Below are positions 4,677 to 46,516 of a stretch of DNA of 64,000 nt, in pieces. The translations under genes were made by a program, and so were the position numbers. How positions within the stretch are numbered: position 1 is the first letter of the stretch; each line of letters begins with the position of its first letter. This DNA is from Escherichia phage vB_EcoM_G53: the sequence record MK327943.1; one strand, given 5' to 3'. Below the pieces are notes generated by a model that did not search any database, was not told where the DNA came from, and saw only the letters and a list, made by a program, of their open reading frames with translations.

Positions 4677-6365
4677 TTATGAAACAGTCATTACAGTAAA
4701 TCGTCCAACTTTGCTCATTTGCAAATGTTGTCCATAACGTTGAGGGTCATGGTCCCTATGAGAAATAATGAACACGTTAGTATTTTGTAAACTTCCAAGA
4801 ATGGTATCTATAGCCTTAACAGCTTCAGAATCAACTGCCCCATCAAAAACCTCATCAAGAATCAGAGTGTTGATTTTAACACCAGAGACCTTTTCAGCAA
4901 TATCTCGCCATGTAAACAACAACGCGATATCAATGCGTGCTTTTTCACCTTGACTAAATGAAGCATAACTAAAATCTTCACGACCACGTGATTTTATAGA
5001 TTCATTGAATTCTTCATCAATAGAAAACACGTAATCAGCTTCCATGATTTTAAGATAATGGTTAATCTGCTTGTTGAACAGAGGCACATATTTTTTAATG
5101 ATAGCACCTTTAATACCAGAATCTTTTAACATATCTGTGATAATACCACGATGGTATTTTTCAAGAACGATATCTGATTTTGTTTTAATGATTTTATCAA
5201 GTTCTTTTTGAAGCAAAGCTATCTCATCGGCATGGTCGATAAATTCTGCTGAGGCTTGCTCTATTGCAGCTTTAACTTTCTTAGCTTTATCAATAGTGGC
5301 AATCATTGCTTGTTTCTTGGTACGAATATCAGATGCAAGGTCCTGTTTAGTCTTAACATTAGCTCTATATTCATCAACTAGGACACTCAGATTATCTCTG
5401 TGACAGGTAAGTTGCTCGAATGAGTGATTACATTCATGAAGCTTATCGGTAATCTTAGAGACAATAGGGTCACCCTGGTGCAATTGTGATGCACAAGTAG
5501 GACATGTGCCACCGTCATGATACATCTTAATAACTTTGTTATATGAGTCGATTTTAGATTTAATCAAGAATGCTTCTTGTCCTATCTTGTTGAATGCCTC
5601 AGTAGGGTCTTCATCAAGAACGATATTAAGTAGTCGCTCATTAGCTTCTTCGATTTCTGCTTTTAATGAACGAGCTTCTTTGGCTAGGTCGTCATACATA
5701 TTCTGTAGACGCGCTACATTATCACCAGATAATTTCTTTTGACGTTCGATATTCTCGTTATAAATCTTAATTTGTTGGATAATACCATCTTTCTTGGCAT
5801 CAAGAACTTGTCCCTGAGAATTAAGTTCGCGAACTTGAGACTTATTGATTTTATCCATTTCAGCGAGTGTGCCGACTTCTAAAAGGTCTTCGACAAGTTT
5901 TCTACGAGCAGGGGTGCTAAGAGCCATGAAAGGGGTATACCCTGCCGTCCCAAGCACAACGATTTGTTTAAAAGACGCGTATGACATTCCGATGCTACGT
6001 TCAAATTCTTCTTGGAAGTCACGACTGCTGGCAGATTCATCGAGACGAACACCGTCAACGGAGATTTCGAAAATATTGGGCTTTTGGCCGCGTCTAATGA
6101 AGTATTTTTTATCATCGAATTCCATCCAAAGCTCAACTAAGAGCTCTTTCTTGTTCGTGCTATTAATGATTTGTCCTTTCTTAACATCACGAAATGGTTT
6201 ACCGAAAAGTCCGAAAGTAATGGCTTCTAACATCGTAGATTTACCACCGCCATTTTTACCGGTGATTAATGTCTTTTGGACTTTATCTAATTGGATATCG
6301 ATAGGATTCCCACCTACCGACATGATGTTTTGATAACGAACACGATTTAATTTAAATGATTTCAT
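4677..6365 (-). CDS. 46: Recombination endonuclease subunit gp46 (Rad50/SbcC-like ATPase)
   Basis: 562 aa; N-terminal Walker A GKNGGGKST, long coiled-coil middle, C-terminal LILDEVFDGAVD signature/Walker B region. Confidence 0.92.
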   Translation of the reverse strand: MKSFKLNRVRYQNIMSVGGNPIDIQLDKVQKTLITGKNGGGKSTMLEAITFGLFGKPFRDVKKGQIINSTNKKELLVELWMEFDDKKYFIRRGQKPNIFEISVDGVRLDESASSRDFQEEFERSIGMSYASFKQIVVLGTAGYTPFMALSTPARRKLVEDLLEVGTLAEMDKINKSQVRELNSQGQVLDAKKDGIIQQIKIYNENIERQKKLSGDNVARLQNMYDDLAKEARSLKAEIEEANERLLNIVLDEDPTEAFNKIGQEAFLIKSKIDSYNKVIKMYHDGGTCPTCASQLHQGDPIVSKITDKLHECNHSFEQLTCHRDNLSVLVDEYRANVKTKQDLASDIRTKKQAMIATIDKAKKVKAAIEQASAEFIDHADEIALLQKELDKIIKTKSDIVLEKYHRGIITDMLKDSGIKGAIIKKYVPLFNKQINHYLKIMEADYVFSIDEEFNESIKSRGREDFSYASFSQGEKARIDIALLFTWRDIAEKVSGVKINTLILDEVFDGAVDSEAVKAIDTILGSLQNTNVFIISHRDHDPQRYGQHLQMSKVGRFTVMTVS

Positions 6366-11906: not shown

Positions 11907-12228
11907 AATCTTCTATGATATCAGAGTCATATCCTAATGAAATCAAGGACTTTTTAAACTCTGCAATATTCTTTTGTTTCTTATCATTTAAAAATATGAC
12001 AGGATAACGAATATTAAGTGAAGTGAATCCTGCACGTTTAGCAAGAGATATGATTAAAGGACGGTCATATTCAATCTTACCATTATTAGTGAGGACTTTA
12101 TAAAATGTATAAGGAGCATTGAGATCCTTTAAAAGTTTTGTAACAGCATAACATCCTGGACAACGTCCTACTTCTTCAGGGATGCCATAAACTTCAATTT
12201 TATTCTTTGGGTTCGAGTTTTGTTCCAC
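11905..12228 (-). CDS. Glutaredoxin-like protein (CxxC), possible NrdH counterpart
   Basis: IEVYGIPEEVGRCPGCYAVTKLLKDL resembles the glutaredoxin active-site region; start ambiguous (GTG at 12228 with SD AAGGAA, or ATG at 12276). Confidence 0.55.
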   Translation of the reverse strand: MEQNSNPKNKIEVYGIPEEVGRCPGCYAVTKLLKDLNAPYTFYKVLTNNGKIEYDRPLIISLAKRAGFTSLNIRYPVIFLNDKKQKNIAEFKKSLISLGYDSDIIED

Positions 12229-12511
12229 GAGAAATAATTCCTTGATAAGCCCAGTACGGCGGGTTAACAGAATCATCACCAGAATTTTCTTCAGGGAAAT
12301 AAACCTGAATAACGAATCCGGATTCGTCAAAGGTAAAATACACTGTAGGCAGTTCACCAAGCAATTCGGAACGAGCGTTAATTTCTTCGAGGTCTTGCTC
12401 ACGTCCAGCCCAGAAACTATGGTTCAGTGTACACTCATAGAAATAATAGTCATTGCCAAACATGTCAAAGCCGTTCCAGCTCTCGGCGACATAACGTTCA
12501 AAACTAAGCAT
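12200..12511 (-). CDS. Hypothetical protein
   Basis: 103-aa ORF (MLSFERYVAESWNGFDMFGNDYYFYECTL...). Confidence 0.5.
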   Translation of the reverse strand: MLSFERYVAESWNGFDMFGNDYYFYECTLNHSFWAGREQDLEEINARSELLGELPTVYFTFDESGFVIQVYFPEENSGDDSVNPPYWAYQGIISRGTKLEPKE

Positions 12512-12513
12512 AA

Positions 12514-12729
12514 TTAGGCCTTTTTATCAAGAATACGTTCGATGCGACGAGTAATTGATTCACAACGTGCTTTAAACTCGGCAGGCGGAAGTCCCTTTTC
12601 AGGAGAAATCGTTCCAATGATGTAGAACATTACTAATGCCGGAATTGTAACCACAGCACCGATGGCCAACAAAATAACCATCACAATAAATCCGAGTGTT
12701 TGTGCTACTGCTAATCGAAATTTATACAT
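12514..12729 (-). CDS. Hypothetical membrane protein
   Basis: 71 aa from MYKFRLAVAQTLGFIVMVILLAIGAVV...; one hydrophobic helix then basic tail; the start overlaps the stop of the upstream 41-aa ORF (TAATG). Confidence 0.45.
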   Translation of the reverse strand: MYKFRLAVAQTLGFIVMVILLAIGAVVTIPALVMFYIIGTISPEKGLPPAEFKARCESITRRIERILDKKA

Positions 12730-12730
12730 T

Positions 12731-12854
12731 AGAAAAAGTTCCCGTACATTGATGCAACAAAAAGCCATTGAGAAGGATACTCAAGGCCCATTAGACGAAC
12801 CGCATCGTTTACTGCTTCTTGTAATGCGTAGAACACATATCCGTAAAAATTCAT
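12731..12854 (-). CDS. Small hydrophobic ORF (41 aa) translationally coupled to gene 49
   Basis: ATG overlaps the gene 49 stop (ATGA); SD GAGGAAA 9 nt upstream; MNFYGYVFYALQEAVNDAVRLMGLEYPSQWLFVASMYGNFF. Confidence 0.4.
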
Positions 12855-13324
12855 TTAAGCGATTTCCTCAGTTGTTTTTTAAATGACGTTACCATTTTAG
12901 CTTTGGTATCGTCTTCATTATAACTAAAACCGTTTGAAAGCATTTCTGCAATCATTTCTTCTTTAGCTAATCTTGAGAACTCTTTAGTTTTGTCCGGAAC
13001 AAAATTAGGATGGATGTTATTAGCAGAATAATCTTGTTTCAAATAAGCAAGAAGAGCTTCAAGCCATTCGAGGTAGTCGACATCACGACCTTTAAGACCA
13101 GAACGGTTGAACTTATGCTTCATTTGACCTTCTGCTGCGTTGCACAGATTACAGAGTAACCCACGAACTCTACCTGCTTTTGGCCCGTTTAATTCGTGGT
13201 CGTGGTCAAGATGGTTACCTTGAACATCAGGGTCTAATTCACGGTGGCAAATAGGACACTTACCGTTCTGTGCATCATAAAATTTTTGTTTTTCTTCTTT
13301 GTATAATTTGCCAGATAATAACAT
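12851..13324 (-). CDS. 49: Endonuclease VII (Holliday junction resolvase) gp49
   Basis: 157 aa MLLSGKLYKEEKQKFYDAQNGKCPICHRELDPDVQGNHLDHDHELNGPKAG... closely matches T4 endonuclease VII. Confidence 0.93.
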   Translation of the reverse strand: MLLSGKLYKEEKQKFYDAQNGKCPICHRELDPDVQGNHLDHDHELNGPKAGRVRGLLCNLCNAAEGQMKHKFNRSGLKGRDVDYLEWLEALLAYLKQDYSANNIHPNFVPDKTKEFSRLAKEEMIAEMLSNGFSYNEDDTKAKMVTSFKKQLRKSLK

Positions 13325-27791: not shown

Positions 27792-27847
27792 TTTGATTTC
27801 TCCTCTAGTTGACAAGTCTATAGTAACACAACTAGAGGAGAAGTAAA

Positions 27848-28147
27848 CTACTCTTTGAAAGGAATTAACTTTTTAACTGCTTTAGATACTTCGTCACGAA
27901 CCTGATGGAAGTTCTTGAGCTGTTCAAGGCGTTGTTCGTAATACGCAATCTCATCTTCTTCAAGACAATCGTCAGCGTCTTCTTTCAGATATGCCTTGTA
28001 CTCATTAAAGAGGGCCCATAGGCGGTTCTCAAAGTCATCAAGGCTTTGAATTTTCTTGTGCTTCGGAACAAGGCCAAAAGGATTGCTTTCAGTTATGCGT
28101 CTAGATGCTTCATAATGAGTTCCAAAGCCTGATAGGATTTGAGCCAT
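27848..28147 (-). CDS. Hypothetical acidic protein
   Basis: 99-aa ORF. Confidence 0.5.
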
Positions 28148-28413
28148 TAGTATTTTTCCTCAGGTCGAAATACCGCACGACATGCCCACATGCTGGCTTC
28201 TTTTAGATGTTGCTTAGCATACTTAAGAGCCTGCACTGCATCCATATCTTCTTTGGTTTGTTGCTCTGTTTCATTTTCTTTCAAGATATATGCTTCTTCA
28301 ATCAGAGCATCAAACAACAATCCAAGACGGACTTCTGCATCTTTAATAGCGTTCACTTTACCGATTTTATCATCGGTATGCGGCTTGTAGCCTTTGATGT
28401 CTTCAATCGACAT
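28147..28413 (-). CDS. Hypothetical protein
   Basis: 88 aa from [18 protein letters not shown] with SD GAGGAAA; the longer track ORF overlaps the upstream gene. Confidence 0.45.
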
Positions 28414-28627
28414 AAGGAATTTCCTCATCTGTGGCAAGGTCATATTCGACCAATTGGATAGGCTCATTAATACCATATCCACGTACAGTGATATCAGTTG
28501 TCGGATAGTTTCCAGTAATATCACCCATTCTAAATGATTCAGTGAATGATTGCTCGCCTGAGCAACTAAACCAGGCGGCAAAACATTTTAAAACATCTTC
28601 AGACCCTTCTATAATCAATTTAGCCAT
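28403..28627 (-). CDS. Hypothetical acidic protein
   Basis: 74-aa ORF. Confidence 0.45.
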   Translation of the reverse strand: MAKLIIEGSEDVLKCFAAWFSCSGEQSFTESFRMGDITGNYPTTDITVRGYGINEPIQLVEYDLATDEEIPYVD

Positions 28628-28989
28628 TATAGACTCTCAGTAAAGGTGCGAGCGATAACGTCACGCTGCTGTTCCGGAGTCAGAGAGTTAAAGCGAACTG
28701 CATAACCGGATACACGGATGGTCAGCTGCGGATATTTTTCCGGATGCTTAACTGCATCTTCCAGAGTTTCACGACGCAGAACGTTAACGTTCAGGTGTTG
28801 ACCACCTTCAATTTTAACTTTAGGTTGATGTTCAATTTCAATTTCACGGGCATTCAAACCGTAGAAAATTTCCGGGTCTACAATAGCGTCTTCTTTAAAA
28901 GTCTTAGAGACAATAATCCGGGCTTGAGTACCGTCTTCAAAATAAATAGTGCCTTTATGTGCACCTTCAAGAATTTGATATGCTTTCAT
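28627..28989 (-). CDS. Glycyl-radical cofactor protein (GrcA/YfiD-like)
   Basis: 120 aa; the C-terminal ~60 aa ([59 protein letters not shown]) carry the RVSGY glycyl-radical motif and match my recollection of enterobacterial GrcA. Confidence 0.8.
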
Positions 28990-28995
28990 ATAACC

Positions 28996-29304
28996 TCAAT
29001 TAGAAAATAAATTTATCCAAGTTTTTTCTTTAATCAAAAATGGGTCGGAATTAAACGCCATTAAACTTTGAGTGATTAATCCCTTAAATGGCCCATCAAT
29101 AAATTCCATTTTGAAATGTGGAATACTAGTCATCAACCGTGCATTAGGAGCAGTACAAAGAACCTGCTGCCCTGCGAACGGACCTTTAGTCAAACGATAT
29201 CGTTTAGGTTTAAAATGGTAAATCTCGTAATTTTCTACAAGGGCCCTTTTATTGCATACTGGGCTGTTATAACAATATTCAAAAACTTCAATAGTGGTCA
29301 TCAT
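28996..29304 (-). CDS. Hypothetical protein
   Basis: 102-aa ORF. Confidence 0.5.
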   Translation of the reverse strand: MMTTIEVFEYCYNSPVCNKRALVENYEIYHFKPKRYRLTKGPFAGQQVLCTAPNARLMTSIPHFKMEFIDGPFKGLITQSLMAFNSDPFLIKEKTWINLFSN

Positions 29305-29840
29305 TGCATTCCAATCACAAAAAATTGAGGACGAGCATTACCGCCGATGCAATATTTGCTTTTGCAACAGTGTTGGACTGTTTTAATATGTACATTGTAA
29401 ATCTTATCCATATCAGGAGCTTTAATAGGCTCGTCAATTATATACAGAATACGAGAAAGCGTTAATCCACGGAATTTAGAACCTTCATTGCCAATAAAAC
29501 TACGAACAGAATCAGTAAATAAACGGAATCGAATATCGTCGCTAGAATAACGAGAAAATTCTTTTTCAATGTTGCCAGCAGAAATTTTAGCATAAGCTGA
29601 AGTATTAGAAAGAACAATAACTGTTCCGCCATCATACAGCCAATTAGCAGCAAAGTTAGTCACAGCAATTGATTTACCTGATTGTCGGCCGCCGTCTAAA
29701 CGAAGTGTACAGTACTGCTTGAGTACGTCTTCAAATGGTGGGACATAACCGTTCTTACAAATTTCTTCTACTCTAGCATCAGAATGGTGTGTAAAAGCAT
29801 TCATCAGGGATAGATAAGGTCCAGTTAAAAATGTTCTCAT
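29301..29840 (-). CDS. P-loop protein, function unknown
   Basis: 179 aa from MRTFLTGPYL; Walker A-like DGGRQSGKS. Confidence 0.55.
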   Translation of the reverse strand: MRTFLTGPYLSLMNAFTHHSDARVEEICKNGYVPPFEDVLKQYCTLRLDGGRQSGKSIAVTNFAANWLYDGGTVIVLSNTSAYAKISAGNIEKEFSRYSSDDIRFRLFTDSVRSFIGNEGSKFRGLTLSRILYIIDEPIKAPDMDKIYNVHIKTVQHCCKSKYCIGGNARPQFFVIGMQ

Positions 29841-30012
29841 ATTATTTCTCTTAAGGTTGGGGCCATTCCGTGGCACATGTTAGGTCCTTCGACTCGCTAT
29901 GTAAACCCATTACCGCATTGCGCTCGACCTTATTACAGGTTGGAAAAGGTACATCACTCAGAGGACTCGACGTTCATGAGGAGAGGTTGCGTTTCCCTTT
30001 ATTAGGCAAGAA

Positions 30013-30342
30013 TTATACTCTAGGCTTTTGAGCTTGTTTGGTATTGGATTCCCATGCGGCTTTGGTAATTTTGTTAGCGGCATAACCAAAGGCATTAGAT
30101 AGAACACCTTTAGAGTTGAATACATCCAATCCAATAAGTACACCGGCTGTGTTAAATTTAGGAGCAAAGTACGCATTAGTTTTAGAAAGAACTTTTTTCA
30201 ATTCAGGGTCTTGAACCAAGCCATCAAAAACGCCTTTACTATTTACTTTGTATGTTACTTTGGGATTTTTACCTTCTTCGATAGCAGCTTTCTGTTCCGC
30301 AGATAATGTAACTTCAGTGATAAACTCCTGATATGTTTTCAT
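30013..30342 (-). CDS. Internal protein (IP) candidate with capsid-targeting N-terminus
   Basis: 109 aa starting MKTYQEFITE, the conserved N-terminal capsid-targeting sequence of T4 internal proteins. Confidence 0.75.
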   Translation of the reverse strand: MKTYQEFITEVTLSAEQKAAIEEGKNPKVTYKVNSKGVFDGLVQDPELKKVLSKTNAYFAPKFNTAGVLIGLDVFNSKGVLSNAFGYAANKITKAAWESNTKQAQKPRV

Positions 30343-30367
30343 TTTGTTCCTATTGTTTTAATTTATG

Positions 30368-30682
30368 TTATTCTTTAGGGAAGTTTTTAGAGTATGCATC
30401 ATAAAGTTTATTACCAATACGACGGAAGACTTTAGCTGCAAAACGGTTTTCAGGGTTTTTAATCATGATTTGCATCATGTAAGTTCCTGCATCCGAAAGA
30501 GCTTCTTCATAGTACCCATTAATTTCTTTAAGAGTCCTACGTTTACCGCCAGGACCATCAACAGTAATTTTCCATTTACCTGTAGAAGTGCGGCTCGGTG
30601 GCTCAACTTGTTCAATCCAAATATAACCACCTTCAACGCGTTGGTTGGCGGATTCTGCAATAAATTCTTTATACGTTTTCAT
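30368..30682 (-). CDS. Internal protein (IP) candidate with capsid-targeting N-terminus
   Basis: 104 aa starting MKTYKEFIAE; body unrelated to the neighbouring IP. Confidence 0.75.
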   Translation of the reverse strand: MKTYKEFIAESANQRVEGGYIWIEQVEPPSRTSTGKWKITVDGPGGKRRTLKEINGYYEEALSDAGTYMMQIMIKNPENRFAAKVFRRIGNKLYDAYSKNFPKE

Positions 30683-30746
30683 TTTTTGTTTCCTTGTTTG
30701 TTTTGATAGAGTAATTATACCATATTAATACTTAAGCGTAAACAAT

Positions 30747-31427
30747 TTAAGCTTTACCGCCAGAAATAATTCCGAAGTTGTTAAAATCGTATCCAATATC
30801 GTCAACATCTACTTTAGGGCTTGCTACAACATAAGCAATTTCACTACGTTTTGCATAGGTGTTGATTTCTTTACCATCGCCACCTAAGAAAGAATACCCA
30901 TTACGTTTTAATGAGCCAAAGTCTTCCGCATCACCAATGAAAGCTTTAACTTTAAATTTGGGGTCTTTGGCATCTGCTTCAATGATAAATTCTTGATACA
31001 TTTTCATTTTTTCCTTAGTAAATTGATTACCATAGTATTTGTACCAAGTCGGACGTTGAGCAATTTTTTCATCTAAGCGTGCTTGACTTATCGCAATGGA
31101 CGCTTCGGACGGGACGTAATTATTACGAAATTCGGCAGGAATGTCGGAAATATCCTGGACAGTCGTGTCCTTGATTTTGAAACCGCGTTTCAAGCATTCA
31201 GCGATTAGCTCGATTTGTCGTAAACGTAAAAATTCGAGTTTGTCGTAAAAGAATGTTACGTGACCTGTGCCTAAGATAAATGTTGGAGAGATTTTAAAAT
31301 CCTTTACACGTTTACCGTTTTGAACATGTTTACGGACTGCACCAAATACGCGTGGTAATTCACGATACTCAGCCATAAGATGTTGGTCGGACAGTTCAGA
31401 AACAAGTGTTAAATTGATACGAGTCAT
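30747..31427 (-). CDS. denV: Endonuclease V (DenV, pyrimidine-dimer glycosylase) with an in-frame C-terminal extension that is an IP-like ORF
   Basis: First ~140 aa [34 protein letters not shown]... match T4 DenV; the frame then continues with no stop through [18 protein letters not shown]... to 30747. An internal ATG at 31007 has SD TAAGGAAAAA. Confidence 0.8.
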
Positions 31428-31485
31428 AATTTCCTCCAAGTAGTTGATGAATGTATAGTATCAAAACCCTTGGAGGAAGTAAACA

Positions 31486-31767
31486 CTATTTTTCTGAAGC
31501 GCCTGAAATATATTTTTCAAGACGTTGTTTCATTAGCGAGCCGTTCTTAGCGATTTCTTCCGGTTTATCGCACATACGTAACAAGGCTTCAAGCTTAGCG
31601 ATATCGCTGGTACGTTCAAATTTGCGAGTATCTATTTTACTAGCAAGTTCAGAAATACGTGCTAATAGACTTTCAGCTTCAACCAAAGCTGCACCTAGCT
31701 TAGTTGCAAATGTGTCGGTAGCTTCGTTAAGAATAGATTCTGATAAAAATTCACTATATGTTTTCAT
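31486..31767 (-). CDS. Internal protein (IP) candidate with capsid-targeting N-terminus
   Basis: 93 aa starting [10 protein letters not shown]; ATG overlaps the lysozyme stop (ATGA). Confidence 0.7.
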
Positions 31768-41170: not shown

Positions 41171-41247
<77 letters not shown>

Positions 41248-41253
41248 AATATA

Positions 41254-41327
41254 TGACCCAGACCAGATTCGAACTGGTAACCTTTCCCTTATGAGGGGAC
41301 TGCTGCTAACCATTGAGCTACAGGGCC
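41254..41327 (-). tRNA. tRNA with anticodon CAU (Met or Ile2-type)
   Basis: Manual fold: T arm ACCAG-UUCGAAU-CUGGU, anticodon loop CUCAUAA, acceptor GGCCCUG/CUGGGUC with one U-U mismatch, 3-bp D stem; 6 nt from tRNA-Arg. Confidence 0.6.
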
Positions 41328-43529: not shown

Positions 43530-44215
<686 letters not shown>

Positions 44216-44219
44216 TTTA

Positions 44220-44954
44220 TTACCTTAAGATTGTTTCAATTTTAGAATAAAGCTCTTCTAAAGAGCCGTCGTTTGTAATAACTAAATCGCCTTCTTCAAT
44301 AGGCAACCCAGCTTCTGTAATATGTTTATCGGTGGATTCCGTACCAGAGCGAACCACATGAATAACTGTAGCACCCATCGCTCTAGCGGTTTCCATTTCA
44401 TGGACTTGGCGTGTATCGGTTACAACATAGTAATCGAAATCACTTCCAATATAATCCATATAGTTTAATGCAAAAAGCTTAACCCAATACATACGGTCAA
44501 ATAAATTAACGACAACATCCGTACCGAGGGCTTGCATAAGACGGCGGATTGACCATGTGTCGTTGATATTATTTATAGCTTCACGCAGGGCTTCATATGG
44601 TTTAATATCTAGATACGAATATCCACCTTCTAACGATGATAATACTTTAACATTATTAATCGGTAAATATTGACTTTGCAAATAAATTAGCGCTTCTTCC
44701 AATAATTCAATAACATCCAACTTATTGAGATTTAATGGTGTTTCACGGTCGTATCCAATGCCTTCAAAGTATTCGTATTTCAACTCTGTGAATACATCAG
44801 GATTTTCAGCATGCCTACGTCCCCAGGCTATTGCTAGAGCGTCTTTAATTGGATATGCTAATTGGTATTTTACGGATTTAAAGTTTGAATTGATGTAATC
44901 AGCAGTGGTGTCTTTACCACTACGTTTGATGCCACTTAAAAAGATTAGCTCCAT
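44220..44954 (-). CDS. 1: Deoxynucleoside monophosphate kinase gp1
   Basis: 244 aa; P-loop LSGIKRSGKDT; matches T4 gp1 in size and N-terminus. Confidence 0.9.
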   Translation of the reverse strand: MELIFLSGIKRSGKDTTADYINSNFKSVKYQLAYPIKDALAIAWGRRHAENPDVFTELKYEYFEGIGYDRETPLNLNKLDVIELLEEALIYLQSQYLPINNVKVLSSLEGGYSYLDIKPYEALREAINNINDTWSIRRLMQALGTDVVVNLFDRMYWVKLFALNYMDYIGSDFDYYVVTDTRQVHEMETARAMGATVIHVVRSGTESTDKHITEAGLPIEEGDLVITNDGSLEELYSKIETILR

Positions 44955-45007
44955 AGGTTTTCCTCATATAATTTATGAGTGATTATAACATACGGAGCTA
45001 GAAGCGA

Positions 45008-45592
45008 TTAACGTAAGGAAGGGTGTCTAGAAATGGATTTAGATTCGACTGCTTGACGTGGTTGTTGAGATACAATGACTTCACCATCCTTTTCTATCGT
45101 CATATACGCATAGTGAATAGTTGCTACGCACGTAACGGCAGGGTCAGAGTCTTCGGTGTAACTAAATTCAATTTCACTCAAATCAGAAATCCATGGTTTA
45201 TAGAAATTCGCCGTCAAAACTACTTCAGTCTTATTGTTGTTTAAAATGTGCAAAGTAACAAACTCAGGACCATCGGAGTGGGCAGTATTATGTCCGGTTA
45301 TATAGTTATTAGTGCTGAGCATCCATTTATACATGTTCATCCAGGACGTCATGTCTTCATCAACTATAAATCGTACAACAAAAGGGTCATATTCAAATGT
45401 GGTGCCTGCACGCATTGCACGTCCTAACCCCATCGTGCCTGTCACAGTTTCAACAACAGGAATTCTCACACCTGGCAATGGAGCCGTTTGGGCATTGAGC
45501 ACAAAACCTGAAGTTCGTGTACTATCCGGGATATCCACAACAAAGTTTGTTATATTTGTTTGGTTAAAAATCTGTCTCGCTGGACGAGTCAT
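45008..45592 (-). CDS. 3: Tail completion / sheath stabiliser gp3
   Basis: 194 aa from the ATG with SD GAGGTG; position between genes 1 and 2 as in T4. Confidence 0.75.
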   Translation of the reverse strand: MTRPARQIFNQTNITNFVVDIPDSTRTSGFVLNAQTAPLPGVRIPVVETVTGTMGLGRAMRAGTTFEYDPFVVRFIVDEDMTSWMNMYKWMLSTNNYITGHNTAHSDGPEFVTLHILNNNKTEVVLTANFYKPWISDLSEIEFSYTEDSDPAVTCVATIHYAYMTIEKDGEVIVSQQPRQAVESKSISRHPSLR

Positions 45593-45694
45593 AAGCACCT
45601 CAAAAACGCTTTAATAAAAATGCAGTATAATGGTTTTAGGTCTCTTCCATTAATCCGGTTCAACAGAATATCAGAAGAACGGAAGAGAATAGAA

Positions 45695-46516
45695 TTAAGA
45701 TTTCCAAACAGTATTCGCAGAGAAACGTTTTCCTTTTGACATAAACTGCTGAGTAGGTAACATGATTATGTTAGCCCAGTCTTTAGGAGCTATTTCTGTT
45801 ATTGTTCCTCTAATGTGGCCTGGCAGGTATGCTTTAATCATTTTGTCAGCACCTTGAAATCCTTTCACCTTGCTCCAGTCTATCTTCAACTTTGTGTTAT
45901 TAGTAATAGTAGTTGTGCTAGCATATTGCTTCAGCAATTCTTCAAGAAACTGTTGACGTGCTTTAGGTGGGATATAGTGCAAGTTTAACCCATACATCAA
46001 ATTATGTTTACCTAATCCTAAATAAATAATCAAAGGATATCTGTCCCAATACGGCAGAGTATCTTTATGTTTAGCATCATACACGTAAGTATAAATTTTG
46101 CCTGGCGTAGGCTTGACTACTTTATGACCTTTTACACTTTTCTTAATTGTTTCAACAAACCACTTAGATGATTTGTTGTTTACTGCTGCGCCTTCATTTC
46201 TAATCTTTTCTCGTATTGAACTGCGAAACGAGTTTATCATCAGAAGTTGACGTTCTTGCTTATTGAGTTTATTTTTAGGTTTAGATTCAAGCGTTTCAAT
46301 TTTCTGTGCAGTTTTAATAGATGATGCATATCTAGACATTGCAGATGTAAACGACGAGTATTTTATTCCTTTTGATTCTGCAAATGCTTTTGCAGTGATT
46401 CCTTTCTCTTTAGCTTTCTTGTATTCTAATCCTATCTCAATCCATTTTCTTTCATTCATAGACTGAGCAATCTTAGGGGCTTGTACGCCTTCAGATATAA
46501 TTTGGAATATGCTCAT
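45695..46516 (-). CDS. 2: DNA end-protector protein gp2
   Basis: 273 aa, basic; T4 gp2 length and position. Confidence 0.8.

Follow-up and report, generated by a model that had tools for sequence, protein, structure and literature searches.

How does a virulent phage come to carry a gene whose second half reads like the chromosome of its host? The question is raised by a stretch of 64,000 nucleotides from Escherichia phage vB_EcoM_G53 (sequence record MK327943.1; this whole stretch is referred to below as the window), which encodes a 120-residue glycyl-radical protein resembling bacterial GrcA (YfiD). The phage is a Mosigvirus, an RB69-like T-even phage. In our interpretation, the gene is the Mosigvirus orthologue of T4 vs.6, whose product Y06I is a spare part for pyruvate formate-lyase (PFL), and it is an old phage gene in which nucleotides (nt) 181-351 have been overwritten by host grcA DNA (probability about 0.8). 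The gene and its function are already known: the T4 orthologue has been characterised, and the annotation is found in close relatives in RefSeq. Thus, the finding as such adds an orthologue rather than a new system, and its value lies in the pattern seen at the DNA level. The locus is made up of the following features.

28627-28989, minus strand: coding sequence of vs.6 (Y06I-type autonomous glycyl radical cofactor, 120 aa), an open reading frame (ORF) from ATG to TAA.
28810-28989, minus strand: 5' half, codons 1-60, encoding the phage-type, AT-rich N-terminal region.
28639-28809, minus strand: putative host-derived patch, gene nt 181-351, codons 61-117, encoding the structured glycyl-radical domain.
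28702-28716, minus strand: RVSGY glycyl-radical motif, codons 92-96, from the sequence and its alignment to PFL 696-759.
28625-28638, minus strand: phage-type 3' junction GAGAGTCTA-TAATG, comprising the last three sense codons, the stop and the overlapping vs.5 ATG.
28994-28997, minus strand: Shine-Dalgarno sequence GAGG of vs.6, read from the sequence, 5 nt before the start and overlapping the TGA stop of vs.7.
28403-28627, minus strand: vs.5 homologue (74 aa), the downstream, translationally coupled neighbour, from its ORF and synteny with the T4 and PhAPEC2 annotation.
28996-29304, minus strand: vs.7 homologue (102 aa), the upstream neighbour, from its ORF and synteny.

As far as sequence can show, the protein belongs with the autonomous glycyl radical cofactors, or PFL spare parts (YfiD-Y06I type, InterPro IPR011140). 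It has their size and layout (stand-alone proteins of about 120-130 aa with a C-terminal PF01228 domain), and the Pfam Gly_radical family PF01228 matches it with an E value of 2e-18 and 67 bits against a cut-off of 22. Its best match among solved structures is YfiD/GrcA (PDB 6OWR, E = 2e-42, residues 21-120 aligned), followed by the C-terminus of PFL (residues 696-759, E = 3e-26). The domain contains the RVSGY radical loop and shares 48/60 residues with the C-terminus of PflB. The predicted radical site is Gly95, which corresponds to GrcA Gly102 (an offset of +7) and aligns with PFL Gly734, the radical site of that enzyme (PMC8683613). A single-sequence AlphaFold2 model of the protein, with a mean pLDDT of 41, was uninformative.

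Orthology to the experimentally validated T4 Y06I is supported by 112/120 identical residues and 338/363 identical nucleotides, as well as by the gene order vs.5-vs.6-vs.7-vs.8, which is common to the window, T4 and PhAPEC2; in T4, vs.6 lies downstream of denV. At the level of the gene, vs.6 of the window is 99.7% identical to that of phage vB_EcoM_G2469 and 98% identical to that of PhAPEC2, which is annotated as 'autonomous glycyl radical cofactor GrcA, similar to Vs.6 of T4'. A probable Shine-Dalgarno sequence of vs.5, GAGAG, lies within vs.6 codons 118-119. A promoter and terminator scan of 27800-31600 found no excess over shuffled sequences, and an Rfam scan of the window returned nothing at the vs.6 locus.

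For comparison with the host, E. coli grcA was taken from an annotated E. coli chromosome. The original prediction held that the C-terminal 60 or so residues are host-identical, and named a merely moderate identity as the result that would tell against it. The alignment bears the prediction out: the last 60 residues (E61-L120; EGGQHLNV...TFTESL), including the RVSGY loop, are identical at 60 of 60 positions to residues 68-127 of E. coli GrcA (YfiD, the protein of structure 6OWR). A match of this extent is far above chance, and at the DNA level it exceeds what had been predicted. The two proteins differ in their N-terminal regions, that of the phage protein being seven residues shorter and identical at 19/60 positions, and in their setting, with the phage gene located in a lytic phage gene cluster and E. 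coli GrcA expressed from the host grcA locus.

The same prediction described the N-terminal half as phage-specific, which is largely true. This half is conserved among T4-like phages and is just 32% identical to GrcA, but the fact that it aligns with the GrcA N-terminal region marks it as homologous rather than foreign. The T4-like phage family must have had the gene for a long time, as the pattern MKA[YF]QILEG..GTIY.E.G..R..VSK is common to Tequatrovirus, Mosigvirus, Jiaodavirus, Slopekvirus and Pseudotevenvirus. In YfiD, residues 1-60 are disordered, yet needed for binding and activation of cleaved PFL (cPFL), and residues 61-127 adopt the fold of PFL 693-759 (PMC8683613). Therefore, the part that is identical between phage and host is very nearly the structured domain with the catalytic function, and the half in which the phage protein has diverged corresponds to the disordered part of YfiD.

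The first eight codons (28966-28989) encode a sequence, MKAYQILE-G, that is similar to MKTYQEFIAE, the capsid-targeting leader of T4 and of the neighbouring internal head proteins; the similarity extends to an I-x-E site like those of the prohead protease. This is the best-conserved part of the N-terminal half across the phage genera, and homologues in T5-like phages have MKAYQNLKSG. A role as a packaging signal was set aside in favour of homology, because the segment aligns with MITGIQITKA, the conserved N-terminus of bacterial GrcA, and T5-like phages have it too; the likeness to the capsid leader may thus be plain homology.

T4 Vs.6 shows the same mosaic of a phage-type N-terminal half and an E. 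coli-identical C-terminal half. It differs from the window protein at eight residues, seven of them in the N-terminal half, the other being R73H of the T4 reference, which lies inside the domain, where the window protein keeps the host residue. In the T4 reference NC_000866 (gene at 5558-5920 of locus L004), codon 73 within the patch is CAT (His), whereas the T4 record MT984581 is identical to E. coli at 171/171 positions, so that T4 stocks differ at this codon.

Is the identity a matter of protein or of DNA? Codons 61-108 are identical to E. coli grcA at 144/144 nt, and the only synonymous differences in the 3' half, five in number, all lie within the last 12 codons; before codon 61 most codons differ. 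Counted in 30-nt bins, identity to the host is 15-17/30 ahead of gene nt 181 and jumps to 30/30 precisely there. Over the core, gene nt 181-351, it reaches 169/171 nt. The base composition changes as well. The window has an overall GC content of 38%, the 5' half of the gene 35% (GC at third codon positions, 23%) and the 3' half, gene nt 181-363, 49%.

The final 180 nt of the window gene were also compared with grcA of 80 other bacterial species. Identity was 175/180 to E. coli and 173/180 to another Escherichia species. Other species encoding the very same 60 residues reached 150-162/180, with Citrobacter amalonaticus the highest (162), and Salmonella, with 58/60 residues, 146/180. The match at silent sites is therefore specific to Escherichia; selection at the protein level cannot explain it, and the DNA must have come from Escherichia. 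This bears directly on the possibility that grcA was acquired once, in the distant past, and that the C-terminal identity has been kept only by purifying selection for a fit to host PFL and PFL-activating enzyme (PflA). Constraint of this kind is real: Cronobacter phage leE retains 60/60 residues at 151/180 nt to E. coli grcA, and two Klebsiella phages of the genus Slopekvirus retain 58/60 residues at 143-149/180 nt. Such a history would, however, leave the silent sites unexplained, and the step in GC content speaks against a long residence in the phage; moreover, the core of Enterobacter phage CC31 has drifted to 53/60, so that the constraint is not absolute. We consider an ancient acquisition held by selection alone hardly likely. 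The original prediction had offered recent acquisition or strong constraint as the cause of the identity, and both operate, the former visible in the silent-site match and the latter in phages with diverged DNA.

Two other origins for the patch were considered and rejected. As a donor, pflB fits poorly, with 139/180 nt compared to 175/180 for grcA. Transfer from phage to host was rejected because E. coli grcA diverges from those of Citrobacter, Salmonella and others broadly according to relatedness in both halves, and the direction is therefore from host to phage. When all of the window was searched by megablast against 5,426 complete E. coli genomes, there was a single matching stretch, 28619-28811, which corresponds to grcA and to which pflB also gave a weaker match; the other 39 kb gave no match to these genomes. 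The 8-nt extension of the BLAST alignment past the stop was rejected as host 3' flank, as it reflects only a coincidental GGCT. Two changes private to the window, 327T and 342C, are carried by none of the 5,426 genomes.

Searched against the phage collection, the 171-nt E. coli core matched 751 records, of which 377 were at least 99% identical, 265 were 95-99% identical, two were 90-95% identical and 107, from Klebsiella phages, were 80-90% identical. These data rule out a technical origin of the mosaic, with host reads or a chimeric assembly placing E. coli sequence in a phage contig. The base composition of the patch is indeed like that of the host, and nothing else in the window resembles host DNA, as would be seen with an artefact. 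However, 642 independent phage records, the T4 reference and the RB series among them, have the same in-frame mosaic at the same position, and within the patch there are substitutions private to phages, followed by a 3' end of phage type. A T5-like phage with a 100% identical patch, which would have been an independent acquisition, was rejected, the 116-kb record in question being a Tequatrovirus.

Stand-alone glycyl-radical proteins are also encoded by T5-like phages (Demerecviridae). Like the window protein, their GrcA-like proteins are small (122 aa) and have a MKAYQ N-terminus, but the domain is only 48/60 identical to GrcA and 128-135/180 nt identical to any host, with no host-identical patch. 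These genes (loci L091, L092 and L135-L161, in phages of about 104-122 kb) are separate from vs.6, and they are variously annotated as pyruvate formate-lyase, GrcA, acetyltransferase or even ribonucleotide reductase subunit.

What are the limits of the patch, and when did it arrive? At its 3' side, the phage end GAGAGTCTATAATGGC differs from the E. coli end GAAAGCCTGTAA. The sequence GAGAGTCTA-TAATGGC, that is the last nine sense nt, the stop and the next start, is identical in Slopekvirus and in leE, which also have the 3' end GAGAGTCTATAATGGC and whose cores are not E. coli-like. Because this 3' end is common across phage genera and carries the vs.5 start region, the host-like tract is internal to the gene and spans nt 181-351.

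The history of the two halves was compared in ten T4-type and Mosig-type sequences (the window, T4, G2469, PhAPEC2 and six IMG/VR contigs). The two types are set apart by ten fixed differences, all of which lie in nt 1-180, with nt 181-351 free of them (Fisher p = 0.0018). Within nt 181-351, T4 is identical to E. coli at 170/171 positions, and one phage of each clade at 171/171. Differences within the patch are mostly private to single phages, with the E. coli sequence at the centre of a star, and states that are shared and phage-specific across the ten sequences occur only at gene nt 354-360. Most likely, the patch arrived by gene conversion after the T4-type and Mosig-type phages had split, and the overwriting from host to phage has possibly been repeated.

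A single transfer of the 3' segment of grcA from host to phage, followed by spread from phage to phage with no ongoing exchange with the host, would account for part of the same evidence. Co-infecting T-even phages recombine readily. The states 354G and 357T at the extreme 3' end are common to all E. coli T-even sequences, and 327T and 342C of the window, as noted above, are matched by no E. coli allele. We nevertheless regard this course of events as rather unlikely, since the N-terminal halves are about 90% identical and exchange between phages would thus have no cause to end exactly at nt 181. The ten clade-fixed differences nevertheless persist in the N-terminal half as far as nt 170, with not one in the patch. 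In addition, a single transfer does not predict the E. coli sequence at the centre of the star, fully identical phages in both clades, or the separate Klebsiella-like patch with the same boundary in Klebsiella phage Roth17.

This last point raises the question of whether the patch follows the host. At the protein level, E. coli phages carry LEDAVKH, the E. coli/Citrobacter variant, and Klebsiella phages carry LLDAVEH, as do GrcA proteins of Klebsiella, Raoultella and Salmonella in our host panel, among others. The Roth17 core is identical to that of E. coli at 147/171 nt and shows the same step at nt 181. One metagenome scan, made with the codon pattern from Roth17, recovered host-type grcA genes (with the N-terminus MITGIQITK) whose core is 164/171 identical to Roth17. 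With this Klebsiella-like core as the query against the phage collection, Klebsiella and Raoultella phages came out on top (90-96.5%, 117 records) and E. coli phages reached 84-88%; the searches with the Klebsiella and E. coli cores are thus mirror images, with the phages sorted by host. In PKO111, Slopekvirus, leE and ENT3, 57-60/60 residues are kept with phage-like codons such as TTA. Thus, constraint at the protein level acts across most of the family, to which the E. coli T-even group and, in a less clear-cut way, Jiaodavirus add newly acquired host DNA.

Because of where the patch starts, at nt 181, and because Klebsiella phages have a patch of their own type, we favour several transfers from host to phage over a single one, although the conversion signature is unproven. 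A stronger form of the same idea is that vs.6 evolves in concert with the host chromosome, the 171-nt patch being repeatedly overwritten by the grcA allele of the current host, of Escherichia type in Tequatrovirus and Mosigvirus and of Klebsiella type in Jiaodavirus. We put this forward tentatively, as a reading that falls a little short of an even chance.

Several points weigh against these interpretations. One conversion followed by spread from phage to phage gives much the same picture. The count of fixed differences is based on ten phage sequences, and at third codon positions it becomes 6/60 versus 0/57 (p = 0.03). The host panel consisted of one genome per species plus metagenome contigs picked by the Klebsiella-phage pattern, and none of its members could be named as K. 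pneumoniae or K. oxytoca. In the phage database, no phage matched Salmonella grcA at 95% or more, and the cores of PKO111, Slopekvirus, leE, ENT3 and CC31 are 84-88% identical to the best host of the panel. As for the assignment of the gene, the NCBIfam model of GrcA, TIGR04365, aligns with residues 18-120 at 159.1 bits, below its cut-off of 170 for the bacterial equivalog. This shortfall results from the diverged N-terminal half, and the protein therefore falls into a phage Y06I subfamily rather than with the bacterial equivalog. Finally, the function of the window protein is transferred from T4 Y06I.

With conversion from the host as the preferred reading, host DNA present in the infected cell would have served as the donor in a homologous gene conversion, given that T4 has a very active recombination system. 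The first conversion, across roughly 85% identity, would have been rare. Once the tract was host-identical, further conversion would be easy and silent at the protein level, so that the phage copy would be locked to the host allele. Classical homologous exchange requires roughly 50-150 nt of identity (PMC8262927), a length that the 171-nt identical tract supplies. Identity sets in exactly where homology begins and breaks off just before the mismatched 3' end with the vs.5 start signals, which would fit a heteroduplex or annealing patch whose flanks, lacking homology, were trimmed; selection for the start of vs.5 may have played a part as well.

A related case is known from cyanophages, in which psbA and psbD copies carried by T4-like phages sustain host energy metabolism and show, in segments, evidence of recombination with host alleles. 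The vs.6 pattern appears analogous to this exchange between host and phage. It differs from it in that a short internal patch of 171 nt lies in an otherwise strongly diverged gene, and in that the carriers are lytic enterobacterial phages that degrade host DNA, with near-identity to the host in hundreds of isolates.

Which enzyme does the phage protein serve? Both E. coli YfiD and T4 Y06I were shown to be spare parts of PFL that receive their radical from PFL-activating enzyme and, by forming a complex with PFL that oxygen has cleaved, make it active again (Wagner et al. 2001, from the Knappe group, as cited in PMC8683613). The same article names these two proteins as the only validated PFL spare parts. 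The proposal that the partner of the window protein is presumably host PFL agrees with the T4 Y06I work as reported there. We propose that, after infection, the phage would make a 13-kDa Vs.6 protein on which host PflA would set a radical at Gly95 in the RVSGY loop. The C-terminal domain (61-120) would then fit into host PFL that oxygen had cleaved at Gly734, and the repaired enzyme would again convert pyruvate to acetyl-CoA and formate. In this way, the fermentative energy supply could be kept up in microaerobic, gut-like conditions with host expression shut off. The spare part would have to come from the phage because host expression stops while damage to PFL goes on under microaerobic conditions. 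TdcE, the other formate-lyase of the host, is a possible additional client.

In 2006, the shared Pfam domain prompted the proposal that vs.6 takes part in nucleotide metabolism (PMC1524935), and the Gly_radical family is indeed also found in the anaerobic ribonucleotide reductase NrdD, which makes this or another glycyl radical enzyme a conceivable client in place of PFL. The domain, however, is identical to that of GrcA and close to the PflB C-terminus, no NrdD appears among the PDB or NCBIfam matches of the protein, and T4 Y06I works with PFL and PFL-activating enzyme according to PMC8683613. Furthermore, the window carries an intact vs.6 and neither nrdD nor nrdG. The absence of the anaerobic ribonucleotide reductase genes had been stated in the original prediction, and tblastn searches of the window with NrdD and NrdG of T4 or PhAPEC2 likewise found nothing. 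In T4 and PhAPEC2, nrdG and nrdD stand beside gene 49, in PhAPEC2 between nrdH/55.8 and gene 49, and a segment of about 2.5 kb of PhAPEC2 (43849-46358) is replaced in the window by about 240 bp. The corresponding region of the window contains two features.

12325-12850: interval devoid of nrdD and nrdG, between nrdH (11908-12324) and gene 49 (12851-13324).
12514-12768: diverged 55.8-like membrane ORF, 44% identical, adjoining the replacement of about 240 bp.

The nucleotide-metabolism role of 2006 is thus not supported, and service to NrdD or a similar enzyme instead of PFL seems to us very unlikely. The absence of nrdD is not needed for the inference of PFL as the partner, because T4 has both genes; the case rests more on the identity of the domain and on the T4 experiments.

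Some other features of the window were noted in passing. The denV frame (30747-31439, minus strand) continues, over 230 aa, into the next small gene with an internal-head-protein-like leader. Compared with G2469 and PhAPEC2, there are two indels near 31005-31030, one A lost from GGTAAATCA and one A gained in GGAAAAATG, which remove the denV stop and restore the frame; the long frame is either a real DenV fusion or the product of two homopolymer sequencing errors. The segments 29880-30649 and 27853-28141 have no blastn similarity to G2469 and PhAPEC2, which are otherwise 97-99% identical to the window. The former holds small ORFs (30013-30342 and 30368-30682) with the capsid-targeting leader MKTYQEFI or MKTYKEFI and looks like a swapped internal-head-protein cassette, and the latter holds a 99-aa ORF (27848-28147) at the position of vs.3. 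Only two tRNA genes were detected by Rfam in the 64-kb window (41174-41327, minus strand).

In the literature searched, which did not include Wagner 2001 or the T4 genome review, we found no earlier description of the nucleotide-level identity of vs.6 to the host. The conversion signature in the DNA, unproven as it is, appears to us of moderate interest, and no claim of novelty is made for it. A practical consequence concerns detection, as grcA has been chosen as a marker gene for E. coli Straboviridae in a pan-genome study and proposed as a PCR marker (PMC12845203). Primers set in the patch would amplify E. coli too.

Nowhere else in these 64 kb does the DNA of this virulent phage come so close to that of its host, from which it is practically indistinguishable in the vs.6 patch. 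It is bounded as a conversion patch would be, and it differs between phages of different hosts. If the reading is true, the locus would represent natural, continuing gene conversion from host to virulent phage. Should conversion indeed continue, vs.6 would provide a simple, quantifiable model of the way in which auxiliary metabolic genes of lytic phages stay matched to their partners in the host, here PflB and PflA, as well as a gauge of the amount of host DNA that lasts until it can recombine in T-even infection.

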